From IMG/VR virus record IMGVR_UViG_3300026472_000003, positions 82,851 through 146,850 of that record: a DNA stretch of 64,000 nt; one strand, given 5' to 3'. The notes beneath the pieces were generated by a model. That model was given only the letters and a program-made list of their open reading frames with translations. It did no database searches and was not told where the DNA came from. Made by a program: the position numbers and the translations under genes. Source of the DNA: a virus (taxonomy: Duplodnaviria; Heunggongvirae; Uroviricota; Caudoviricetes). This document shows positions 34,952-39,518 of this stretch, piece after piece (position 1 is the first letter of the stretch; each line of letters starts with the position of its first letter).

Positions 34952-35027
34952 TGGTAGCGGGTAGCAGACTCGAACTGCTCTTCATTCGGCGTATGAAACC
35001 GATGACCTCCCCGAGGTCTAACCCGCA
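34952..35027 (-). tRNA. tRNA-Met(CAU), initiator-like
   Basis: Acceptor UGCGGGU/ACCCGCU with 1-72 U.U mismatch. D-arm GACC/GGUC, anticodon stem UCGGU/GCCGA with loop UUCAUAC, T-arm AGCAG-UUCGAGU-CUGCU, CCA encoded. 5' end overlaps the last 10 nt of the HNH ORF. Confidence 0.55.
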
Positions 35028-35545
35028 ATTATTTTGTAATTGAACACAGCAGCCAGGAACTTTTCATCTTCCCTTGTTGAGTGCTCTAGGATATGGCAAT
35101 TTGCACAAAGAAGCTCACACTTTTCTATCTCAGAAAGAAGAATGTCCCAAGACCTGTTTGAAAATCTTCCTATTTCAAAATCTTTGTCTCTCAGATGGTG
35201 GAACTGGAGAGCAGTGGGATTATCATAACCACAACGATTACAACAACCTCCTAAATGGCTTATCGCCTTGAGCTTATTCCTATGTCTTCTTATTTTTGTA
35301 ACGCAAGTGGGGCAGGTGTGTCTTCTTTTACACTCTTTACCACAAACCTTACAGACATTGGTGGAATTTTTCTTATTGTTCGGAAGATTTAGAGTCTTTA
35401 GCTTTAGGGAGACAAGACGAGACTTCATTGTTGAAGTGGGTATGCCATAATGCCTTGCTAGCATACTGACAGAGTGTCCTTGGGCAATAAGATCTTCTAT
35501 TCCTTCCATACATCCTCTAATTGGTGCAGAGGGAAGGTATCGCAC
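35018..35545 (-). CDS. HNH homing endonuclease
   Basis: Cys-rich zinc-finger region and C-terminal ..LLCANCHILEH.. HNH motif, located inside the tRNA array. Confidence 0.65.
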   Translation of the reverse strand: MRYLPSAPIRGCMEGIEDLIAQGHSVSMLARHYGIPTSTMKSRLVSLKLKTLNLPNNKKNSTNVCKVCGKECKRRHTCPTCVTKIRRHRNKLKAISHLGGCCNRCGYDNPTALQFHHLRDKDFEIGRFSNRSWDILLSEIEKCELLCANCHILEHSTREDEKFLAAVFNYKIIAG

Positions 35546-35602
35546 CTTCCTCTAAAGCTCTTCAGGCAATCGCTAATCTCTCTCAGCTACCTCTGCAAAA
35601 CT

Positions 35603-35680
35603 TGGTGGGTAATCTCGGACTCGAACCGAGAAGCTCCTGTTTCTAAAACAGGAAGGTATACCAATTCCCTTCAACTACCC
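35603..35680 (-). tRNA. tRNA with anticodon UAG (Leu by code, but type-I architecture)
   Basis: Acceptor GGGUAGU/AUUACCC, anticodon stem CCUGU/ACAGG with loop UUUAGAA, 5-nt variable loop, T-arm CUCGG-UUCGAGU-CCGAG, CCA encoded. Confidence 0.5.
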
Positions 35681-36170: not shown

Positions 36171-36256
36171 TGGCGACGAGAGAGGGACTCGAACCCCCAT
36201 AGAGCTTTCGCTCACGGATTAACAGTCCGCCGTTCTACCGAATGAACCATCTCGTC
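36171..36256 (-). tRNA. tRNA-Asn(GUU) with a 15-nt extended variable arm
   Basis: D-arm and anticodon arm (GUUC..GAAC G GCGGA CUGUUAA UCCGU) match the E. coli tRNA-Asn pattern, but the variable region is GAGCGAAAGCUCUAU with its own stem. Acceptor GACGAGA/UCUCGUC is perfect. Confidence 0.55.
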
Positions 36257-36426: not shown

Positions 36427-36513
36427 TGGTGGGTCGGGTGGGATTCGAACCCAACGATCCCTCGATTAAAAGTCGAGTGCCTTAGTCATACGACGCCGCT
36501 TGGCTACAAACCC
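36427..36513 (-). tRNA. tRNA-Lys(UUU) candidate with enlarged D-loop (possible pseudogene)
   Basis: 3' half is canonical (CUCGA-CUUUUAA-UCGAG, T-arm, CCGACCC-A-CCA). The only 5' partner found (GGGUUUG) leaves a 20-nt D-loop carrying an inserted hairpin. Confidence 0.35.
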
Positions 36514-37063: not shown

Positions 37064-37471
37064 CTATTTACCTGTTCTGCCGTACTGAGACTTTCTTCTT
37101 TCTGGGCAGTAGTTAGAGGAACTGTACACACGCCTAGCTTCCTTACACAAGTCACAACGGCAATTGTGAGAAGTGTATCTACTAAGTGTCCCATGCTCTG
37201 CAACTGGGCGTCGAGCATCAGCCACATTACAGGAGAGGTGGCTGAAAGAAATATTATTTAAATCAAAGTATAATCCAACAGGGTCTTCGCTGTCCAACCA
37301 AGGAACCAAGTGTTCAATAGAAAATGTATCTCTCGTCATTTTCTCATGACACTTGCAGCAAGTATCCTTACTGGTTTCTATCAGCAAGCCCCAGAGAATG
37401 TCTTTTGTCAACCTTCCTGATGCCGTGCTTGGATTCATACTTAGTTGTTCTTTTTTCTTATCACTCATCAA
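37064..37471 (-). CDS. HNH-like endonuclease (zinc-finger)
   Basis: 135 aa with multiple C-x2-C/H pairs (CCKCHEK.., SHLSCNVA.., CRCDLC), inside the tRNA array. Confidence 0.45.
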   Translation of the reverse strand: MMSDKKKEQLSMNPSTASGRLTKDILWGLLIETSKDTCCKCHEKMTRDTFSIEHLVPWLDSEDPVGLYFDLNNISFSHLSCNVADARRPVAEHGTLSRYTSHNCRCDLCKEARRVYSSSNYCPERRKSQYGRTGK

Positions 37472-37891: not shown

Positions 37892-37978
37892 TGGCAGGAA
37901 GAACAGGATTCGAACCTGTAGTGGGGTTTCCCCGACGGATTTGGAATCCGTTGCGTTCAGCCATTTCGCTACCTCCCT
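37892..37978 (-). tRNA. tRNA-Trp(CCA) with extended variable arm
   Basis: Acceptor AGGGAGG/UCUUCCU-G (Trp-like 5' A and discriminator G), anticodon arm ACGGA-UUCCAAA-UCCGU, variable region CGGGGAAACCCCACU (hairpin), T-arm ACAGG-UUCGAAU-CCUGU. Confidence 0.5.
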
Positions 37979-38620: not shown

Positions 38621-38689
38621 TGCATGAATCAGGACTCGAACCTGAACGGGGGCTTTGCAGTCGTCCCCTGACCCTATTGTCGCTTACGC
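38621..38689 (-). ncRNA. tRNA-like element / degenerate tRNA (no canonical D or anticodon arm)
   Basis: Good T-arm UCAGG-UUCGAGU-CCUGA and a 6/7 acceptor pairing GCGUAAG/UUCAUGC, but the centre is a GGGG-N12-CCCC hairpin and no CCA. Confidence 0.3.
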
Positions 38690-38734
38690 TATCGTCGGCT
38701 CTACGTCTACCCATTCCGTCATTCACACGTCATT

Positions 38735-39429: not shown

Positions 39430-39518
39430 TGGTGCGTCCGGTGGGGGTCGAACCCACAATCCCCGTCAGGGGAGGGAGATTTTAAGTCTCCTGTATATAC
39501 CAATTTCACCACAGACGC
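39430..39518 (-). tRNA. tRNA-Leu(UAA)
   Basis: Class II tRNA, anticodon arm GGAGA-CUUAAAA-UCUCC, long variable arm, acceptor GCGUCUG/CGGACGC. Confidence 0.7.

Follow-up and report, generated by a model that had tools for sequence, protein, structure and literature searches.

The question raised by this locus is whether a transfer RNA (tRNA) that carries the leucine anticodon UAG without a long variable arm still decodes CUA as leucine. The gene lies in a stretch of 64,000 nucleotides (nt), here called the window, which corresponds to positions 82,851 to 146,850 of the IMG/VR virus record IMGVR_UViG_3300026472_000003, assigned to the Caudoviricetes. According to a 2023 identity review, tRNA-Leu is long-armed everywhere except in animal mitochondria (PMC9976931). 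A previous inspection of the letters (the sequence-only reading) had offered three explanations for the short arm: a recoding or identity-switched tRNA, a tRNA that receives a different amino acid, or an additional Leu isoacceptor whose identity set is non-standard. The analysis described here indicates that the gene very probably encodes a functional phage tRNA-Leu that reads CUA, would be charged by the host leucyl-tRNA synthetase (LeuRS) and would supplement CUA decoding, and that it descends from a class II (long-armed) tRNA-Leu and entered this phage as a cassette.

ARAGORN called 20 minus-strand tRNA genes between 34.9 and 43.3 kb of the window, and the tRNA-Leu(tag) gene is among them, on a strand that the sequence-only reading had left unstated. 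Its minus-strand reading is GGGTAGTTGAAGGGAATTGGTATACCTTCCTGTTTTAGAAACAGGAGCTTCTCGGTTCGAGTCCGAGATTACCCACCA, a total of 78 nt made of 75 nt and an encoded CCA; the acceptor strands, the anticodon stem and loop, the encoded CCA and the lack of an extra arm were all present as previously described (Table 1). The Rfam model RF00005 matched the gene over model positions 1-71 of 71 with 39.1 bits (gathering score 29; E-value 1.6e-5 in 10.5 kb) and with the anticodon register unchanged, so that neither the alternative register nor the pseudogene-level score named beforehand as counter-evidence was found. The only other Leu tRNA encoded in the window is the class II tRNA-Leu(UAA) already pointed out from the letters and also called by ARAGORN, and there is no other CUN reader.

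A blastn search with the window tRNA as query matched 68 of 50,697 phage records. The best matches came from Klebsiella phage KP13-16 (91% identical, Stephanstirmvirinae), Serratia phage Slocum (Demerecviridae), Pseudomonas phage PPSC2, Acinetobacter phages (among them the T4-like KARL-1), Salmonella phage Arash, phages of Vibrio and Aeromonas, and the jumbo phage SCTP-2. Most of these relatives were labelled tRNA-Leu by their depositors, with two records labelled tRNA-OTHER. Judged by its sequence, the window gene is an addition, with an identity of 91% or less, to a group that GenBank already lists as tRNA-Leu. A short-arm tRNA-Leu is exceptional for cellular bacteria, as had been stated, but not for phages, in which this form is common and routinely annotated.

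Two subfamilies have been distinguished. Subfamily A, defined here for the window type, has 75 nt before the CCA, the D-arm UGA-N-GGGAAUUGG-N-AUACCU, a Watson-Crick 26-44 pair, the variable region G-N-N-U, A37 and A73, whereas subfamily B (BF23 type) has 74 nt before the CCA, a regular D-arm and a 5-nt variable loop. The window gene shows every defining feature of subfamily A and carries the consensus base at every invariant column. Short-arm tRNAs of the KpS11/BF23 type were found in 212 further phage records, the window-type D-arm was recovered by pattern scan in 75 IMG/VR contigs, and pattern scans also yielded 35 bacterial or metagenome-assembled genome (MAG) contigs, mostly tRNA arrays with up to 25 genes in 8 kb. 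The spread of subfamily-A genes across unrelated phage families and hosts implies horizontal transfer of the gene. No relative of the window tRNA was found by blastn in 5,426 complete E. coli genomes, which means that the gene does not reside in E. coli prophages.

The fold was assessed by covariation because the single-sequence minimum free energy (MFE) fold of the window tRNA is extended and non-cloverleaf (z = -2.7), which is uninformative on the real fold. One alignment contained 95 distinct subfamily-A sequences, a second one contained 76 sequences with the window excluded, and a covariance model (R1) was also built without the window sequence. Among the 95 sequences, covariation was found at 7/7 acceptor pairs, at all anticodon-stem pairs and at 4/5 T-stem pairs, with three to six pair types each; 99.4% of the cells are paired, compared to 35-48% when the 3' partners were slid by one to three columns. 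In the 76-sequence alignment 17 of the 21 pairs change on both sides, the three invariant D-stem pairs being uninformative; 99.4% of the cells are again paired, and 601 cells are doubly changed versus 177 in shuffles, none of the 500 shuffles reaching the observed score. Model R1 matched the window gene at full length with 93.8 bits (E-value 1.5e-27) and zero mismatched pairs, and the second-best window tRNA under this model scored 44.9 bits. Seven positions differ from the nearest relative in KP13-16, and six of these form three compensatory double changes. On this comparative evidence the gene is under purifying selection for structure and represents no chance match or decaying remnant.

The statement that all arms fold canonically needs a correction, as one extra nucleotide is located between the acceptor stem and the D-stem. 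In the ARAGORN drawing this nucleotide was absorbed as a 4-bp D-stem with position 26 absent, and in the RF00005 alignment it slipped the acceptor by one base, producing three mismatches. The ARAGORN 4-bp D-stem was ruled out, as columns 10-28 were paired in 24/95 sequences and columns 11-27 in 59/95. The conserved layout in the 95 relatives consists of A10-U25, one variable unpaired nucleotide, two G-C pairs and G13.A22; the window D-arm has the same elements, with a single bulged nucleotide and a tRNA-Leu-type D-loop containing A14, A15, G18, G19 and A20a. Two D-stem models, a 3-nt connector or A10-U25 plus a bulge, fit equally well, the three D-stem pairs being invariant. Positions 26 and 44 (columns 28-46) form a covarying Watson-Crick pair in 95/95 sequences, with five pair types, and in 76/76 of the second alignment, which extends the anticodon stem to 6 bp and leaves a variable region of 4 nt (G45-N-N-U48). 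The variable loop is thus short and armless, as first described, although with 4 nt (GCUU) instead of the 5 nt given.

Leucine identity is supported by the anticodons, the identity bases, the locus shared with class II Leu(UAG) genes and the record of BF23, and the arm lengths in the harvested loci fit it. With the anticodon unconstrained, subfamily A was found with UAG (64 sequences), GAG (16), CAA (10), UAA (2), CAG (2) and AAG (1), that is, with exactly the six Leu anticodons, in proportions that are biased because the harvested loci were chosen by patterns requiring NAG, a bias that affects neither the UUR readers nor the lack of non-Leu anticodons. No non-Leu anticodon occurs on an A or B body among the 1379 tRNAs predicted across the 110 harvested loci. 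A73, U8, A14, A15, U48, G19 and C56 are invariant in the family (95/95), G18, U54, U55 and A58 occur in 94/95 sequences and A20a in 86/95, and at the sequence level the window copy carries the consensus base at all these positions; its D-loop is as long as the one in E. coli leuW. The determinants of E. coli LeuRS are A73, the A15-U48 pair, G18G19, A20a and D/T-loop contacts, while the long arm and the anticodon are dispensable and variants without both arms are still substrates (PMC9976931). The gene is consequently an extra Leu isoacceptor, as one of the initial proposals had it, but with a standard identity set (A73, A15-U48, G18G19, A20a, U8/A14) instead of a non-standard one, and CUA is most likely read as leucine by this tRNA.

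The class II architecture, a structural class defined by a long variable stem-loop, is lacking in the window tRNA, whose variable region has 4-5 nt. In the same loci 103/106 Ser and 28/38 Tyr tRNAs are still at least 82 nt long, so arm loss is limited to Leu, as expected if LeuRS tolerance permits this loss; neutral tolerance by LeuRS together with compactness is a sufficient account of it. The GenBank record of BF23 states that its short-arm tRNAL1 with the anticodon changed to CUA is an effective amber suppressor, which indicates that subfamily B is charged and used by E. coli.

Two variants were observed within and beside the family. Fourteen subfamily-A sequences have C33 (loop UCGAGAG) where U33 is near-universal, all of them among the GAG-anticodon members inspected (for example, L063 447-524, L072 9838-9915 and L023 294-371, named by harvested locus). 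Other short tRNAs with Leu anticodons (UAA, CAA, UAG) in phage clusters have D-arms that are not Leu-like, such as UAGCCCAACGGCAGAGGC (L021 384-459, L011 8425-8502), and their identity is less certain than that of the window gene.

The genomic context indicates how the gene may have been acquired. The window phage is Vequintavirinae-like (rV5-like), with about 76% DNA identity to Erwinia phage Hena1 over structural genes. In the syntenic slot beside tRNA-Phe, Hena1 (85 nt) and Klebsiella phage BIS47 (86 nt) encode a class II tRNA-Leu(UAG) with D and anticodon arms nearly identical to those of E. coli leuW, while Klebsiella phage KpS11, with flanks nearly identical to those of BIS47, has a 77-nt short-arm tRNA(UAG) in this slot. 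The same alternation is found in Tequintavirus, where tRNAL1(UAG) of T5 is an 85-nt class II gene and tRNAL1 of BF23 a 77-nt short-arm gene. Alignment of the window with Hena1 extends through the upstream flank to the first tRNA base, after which the tRNA body differs. Since the flank is conserved up to the 5' end of the tRNA and the alleles alternate, the short-arm and class II Leu(UAG) genes behave like alternative cassettes at one locus. HNH-type genes adjoin or overlap short-arm Leu tRNAs in Slocum and Arash, the overlap being at the 5' end of the gene, and their presence at these loci suggests a tRNA cassette exchange driven by homing endonucleases. In the window, the HNH-like open reading frame (ORF) at 35018-35545, beside the tRNAs, is a possible homing endonuclease that could mediate such an exchange; neither of the two HNH-like ORFs of the cluster (Table 1) matched Pfam at 1e-3.

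The proposed explanation is that a leuW-like class II tRNA-Leu(UAG) was replaced in a cassette-like manner in this phage lineage by a gene in which the long variable arm had given way to a compact core formed by a bulged 3-bp D-stem, the Watson-Crick 26-44 pair and the 4-nt variable region. Descent from class II tRNA-Leu is proposed because the D-arm is of the Leu type. The tRNA would be transcribed with the minus-strand cluster and matured at the encoded CCA and, judging from the E. coli literature and the BF23 GenBank note, would be leucylated by the host LeuRS, the only synthetase of class II tRNAs that makes no use of the long arm. It would thereby supplement a scarce host tRNA-Leu(UAG), which fits the codon use: CUA accounts for 7.3 per 1000 codons (9% of Leu) in the window ORFs, about three times the 2.6 per 1000 (2% of Leu) in a 49-kb region of E. 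coli K-12 treated with the same ORF procedure. CUG would probably also be read through U34 wobble. The short-arm tRNAs with A37 would not depend on the m1G37 modification by the host TrmD.

Several points, in addition to the sampling bias mentioned above, weigh against this explanation. The comparison of CUA use is indicative only, as E. coli may not be the host of the phage. The canonical CUN-reading tRNA-Leu has G37, the m1G37 site, which is present in E. coli leuW and in the class II alleles of Hena1 and BIS47, whereas A37 occupies this position in the window tRNA and in 94/95 relatives. The suppressor note of BF23 concerns the sister subfamily B and leaves the inserted amino acid unstated. 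As the D-stem pairs never vary, covariation does not inform the exact D-stem register (bulge or 3-nt connector), and the bulged form is only a presumed one. Finally, no charging of the short-arm tRNA-Leu(CAA) of Streptomyces coelicolor by E. coli LeuRS was obtained (PMC6614811), which shows that a short arm is not automatically tolerated.

The same Streptomyces result would favor a mischarged tRNA, in which the UAG anticodon belongs to a body that receives a different amino acid and CUA is recoded in the phage proteins, as would the variable region so unlike that of cellular bacterial tRNA-Leu, the low generic tRNA score and the label given to some relatives by annotators. This explanation is hardly credible, because this body occurs on Leu anticodons only and swaps with bona fide class II Leu(UAG) genes at a syntenic locus, and these same grounds disfavor both the recoding or identity switch and the charging with another amino acid that had been suggested from the letters. 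In addition, the D-arm matches those of E. coli leuW and of the phage class II Leu tRNAs, A73 is invariant, position 3-70 is G-C and not the G3.U70 of Ala, and the long arm for SerRS is absent. ValRS, IleRS and MetRS read the anticodon and require C36, U36 or CAU, not G36. With its Leu-type D-arm, A73, no G3.U70 and Leu anticodons only, the gene would not be classed among identity-switched tRNAs. It is also very improbable that it is a decaying remnant, that is, a class II tRNA-Leu that lost its arm by deletion in this lineage and with it its function. The non-cloverleaf MFE fold, the irregular D-arm and two cluster neighbors that look degenerate (the tRNA-Phe gene and the tRNA-like element, Table 1) could be taken as signs of decay, but the D-arm irregularity is an invariant family trait and not a private lesion, all helices are intact, the high score was obtained under a model made from other phages, the changes relative to KP13-16 are compensatory, and the CCA and all tertiary-interaction bases have been kept.

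A further explanation is not exclusive with a Leu tRNA charged by the host LeuRS and adds a reason for the arm loss, namely that the short arm was selected to evade nucleases or toxins that recognize the class II variable arm, so that the phage would retain Leu decoding once the host tRNA-Leu had been destroyed. In two families, very closely related phages carry either the class II or the short-arm allele, homing-endonuclease-like genes flank short-arm Leu tRNAs, the Asn and Trp tRNAs of the same cluster also have remodelled variable regions, and six harvested loci have a gene for the RNA-repair ligase RtcB less than 300 nt away from a short-arm Leu tRNA, all of which fit an anti-defence role. 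These loci are L060 (tRNA-Leu(UAG) 870-946, RtcB 1065-2270), L054 (4826-4902 and 5028-6230), L032, L040, L114 and L128, and among them are solitary copies on chromosomes of Marinicella marina and related MAGs; the two RtcB copies tested, those of L060 and L054, matched Pfam with an E-value of 1e-128. The pairing of RtcB and short-arm Leu tRNA may constitute a tRNA back-up and repair module. However, no bacterial defence targeting the variable arm of tRNA-Leu was found in a literature search, an RtcB homologue is absent from the window, RtcB is common in phage tRNA regions generally and the six-locus count has no background control, and neutral LeuRS tolerance with selection for compactness explains the loss equally well. 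An anti-defence layer is therefore considered unlikely. The wider proposal that phages keep and exchange an armless Leu tRNA lineage covering all six Leu codons, with a core of its own (bulged D-stem, 6-bp anticodon stem, A37 at the m1G37 site) and selected to escape defences or toxins that recognize the variable arm or the modification status of class II tRNA-Leu, is similarly doubtful; if it were true, the recurrent adjacency of RtcB would mark a module of back-up and repair.

Table 1. Position and characteristics of the short-arm tRNA-Leu(UAG) gene, its parts and neighboring features in the window.
Feature	Position	Strand	Characteristics and evidence
Whole tRNA-Leu(UAG)	35603-35680	-	Short-arm subfamily A architecture; ARAGORN, Rfam, family model R1
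Acceptor stem, 5' strand GGGUAGU	35674-35680	-	Partner 35607-35613; 7/7 pairs covary in the family, 4-6 pair types each
U8 G9 and D-arm UGA-A-GGG-AAUUGGUAU-A-CCU	35654-35673	-	Column statistics (95 sequences); alignment with leuW and class II phage Leu
Anticodon arm	35635-35653	-	6-bp stem (U26-A44 and CCUGU/ACAGG), loop UUUAGAA
Anticodon UAG	35643-35645	-	CTA on the plus strand; preceded by U33, followed by A37
Variable region GCUU (G45 to U48)	35631-35634	-	4 nt with the 26-44 pair counted; extra arm absent; G45 and U48 invariant in the family
T arm CUCGG-UUCGAGU-CCGAG	35614-35630	-	
Acceptor 3' strand AUUACCC, A73 and CCA	35603-35613	-	A73 at 35606, in 95/95 relatives; encoded CCA at 35603-35605
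tRNA-Phe(GAA)-like gene	35525-35596	-	6 nt downstream of tRNA-Leu(UAG); Rfam 44.5 bits; order as in BIS47 and KpS11
ORF with HNH-like motif CxxC...CANCH (CANCHILEH)	35018-35545	-	Translation motif only
ORF with HNH-like motif SIEHLVPW...SHLSCN	37064-37471	-	Inside the tRNA cluster; motif only
tRNA-Asn(GUU)	36171-36256	-	86 nt
tRNA-Lys(UUU)-like gene	36430-36513	-	Rfam 44.7 bits; missed by ARAGORN
tRNA-Trp(CCA)	37892-37978	-	87 nt
tRNA-like element	38621-38728	-	Family model only (29 bits); missed by ARAGORN and Rfam
Class II tRNA-Leu(UAA)	39430-39518	-	89 nt

Other genes of the cluster also depart from the usual tRNA form. The tRNA-Phe(GAA) gene has two mismatched anticodon-stem pairs and an unusual T loop (UGCGAUA), and it was missed by ARAGORN in the window and called in BIS47 and KpS11, where it is conserved. 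The tRNA-Asn(GUU) and tRNA-Trp(CCA) genes each have a class-II-like extra stem-loop in the variable region (GAGC-GAAA-GCUC in tRNA-Asn), an anomaly opposite to that of the armless Leu; the long tRNA-Asn is conserved in Hena1, KpS11 and 4MG, and 9/39 Asn tRNAs in the harvested loci have at least 82 nt. The tRNA-like element combines a 7-bp acceptor (GUGUGAA/UUCAUGC), a Leu-type D-arm (UGACGGAAUGGGUAGACG) and a normal T arm with about 56 nt in place of the anticodon and variable arms, has no encoded CCA and recalls the 'tRNA-like stable RNAs' of T5. In the tRNA-Lys(UUU)-like gene the D-loop is enlarged by a 13-nt insertion with respect to the model. A minus-strand scan for promoters and terminators around the tRNA-Leu(UAG) gene found none, and the structure of the 105-nt spacer upstream of it was not unusual.

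For the window these results mean that no recoding is needed, that CUA stands for leucine and that the proper annotation is tRNA-Leu(UAG). The gene itself is ordinary and the family is of greater interest, since armless Leu tRNAs have been annotated without comment in hundreds of phage genomes, including relatives of T5 and T4. A description of short-arm phage tRNA-Leu was not found in the searchable literature, where 'type I tRNALeu' appears only in a Streptomyces paper (PMC6614811), the single Streptomyces tRNA being the only exception found there to the long-armed bacterial tRNA-Leu. The phage family is thus under-described as regards its reach, the use of six Leu anticodons, the distinctive core and the way its alleles alternate with class II genes. 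Armless phage Leu tRNAs would be natural minimal substrates of LeuRS and could serve as scaffolds for engineered suppressor tRNAs, and near-isogenic phages with class II or short-arm alleles at one locus provide a natural experiment on why phages remodel variable regions.

Among known systems, animal mitochondrial tRNA-Leu also lacks the long arm and is specified mainly by A73 and A14 (PMC9976931), although it is organellar, with a dedicated LeuRS, reduced D/T-loop interactions and no evolutionary link to the window tRNA. The type I tRNA-Leu(CAA) of S. coelicolor has a 5-nt variable loop and is genuinely leucylated, with an important U8-A14, but it needs a specialized leucine-specific domain of its LeuRS, A73 is not a determinant in it and it is not charged by E. 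coli LeuRS (PMC6614811). The tRNA-Tyr of T5 is, like the short-arm Leu, a phage copy of a class II tRNA with a remodelled variable region, and with its altered variable loop it resists Retron-Eco7 (PMC13096335); it keeps the long arm, and the anti-defence role demonstrated for Tyr is hypothetical for Leu.

The closer comparisons are with Leu(UAG) genes. E. coli leuW and the class II genes of Hena1, BIS47 and T5 share with the window tRNA the anticodon, A73, U8/A14, A15-U48, G18G19, A20a and the T loop, and the phage genes also share the locus, but they have a variable arm of 13-14 nt, whereas the window tRNA has no arm, A37 and a bulged D-stem. The annotated subfamily-A genes of KP13-16, Slocum, PPSC2, BS46 and KARL-1 (both Acinetobacter phages), Ah1 (Aeromonas phage) and Arash (Salmonella phage) have the 75-nt architecture, the invariant D-arm and the variable region of the window gene under the label tRNA-Leu(tag), while their stem sequences differ by compensatory changes and their phage families and hosts are unrelated to the Vequintavirinae-like backbone. 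Subfamily B, represented by tRNAL1 of BF23 (NC_042564) and by the rV5- or T5-like phages KpS11, 4MG, GAP31 and SalP219, differs in its 74 nt plus CCA, its regular D-stem, its 5-nt loop and, in KpS11, an unpaired G and A at 26/44, but shares with the window tRNA the short variable region, A73, the UAG anticodon, the location in a phage tRNA cluster and the Leu-type D-loop GGAAUUGGYAUAC. BF23 tRNAL1, which sits where the sister phage T5 has a class II Leu(UAG), is the closest studied relative of the window tRNA.

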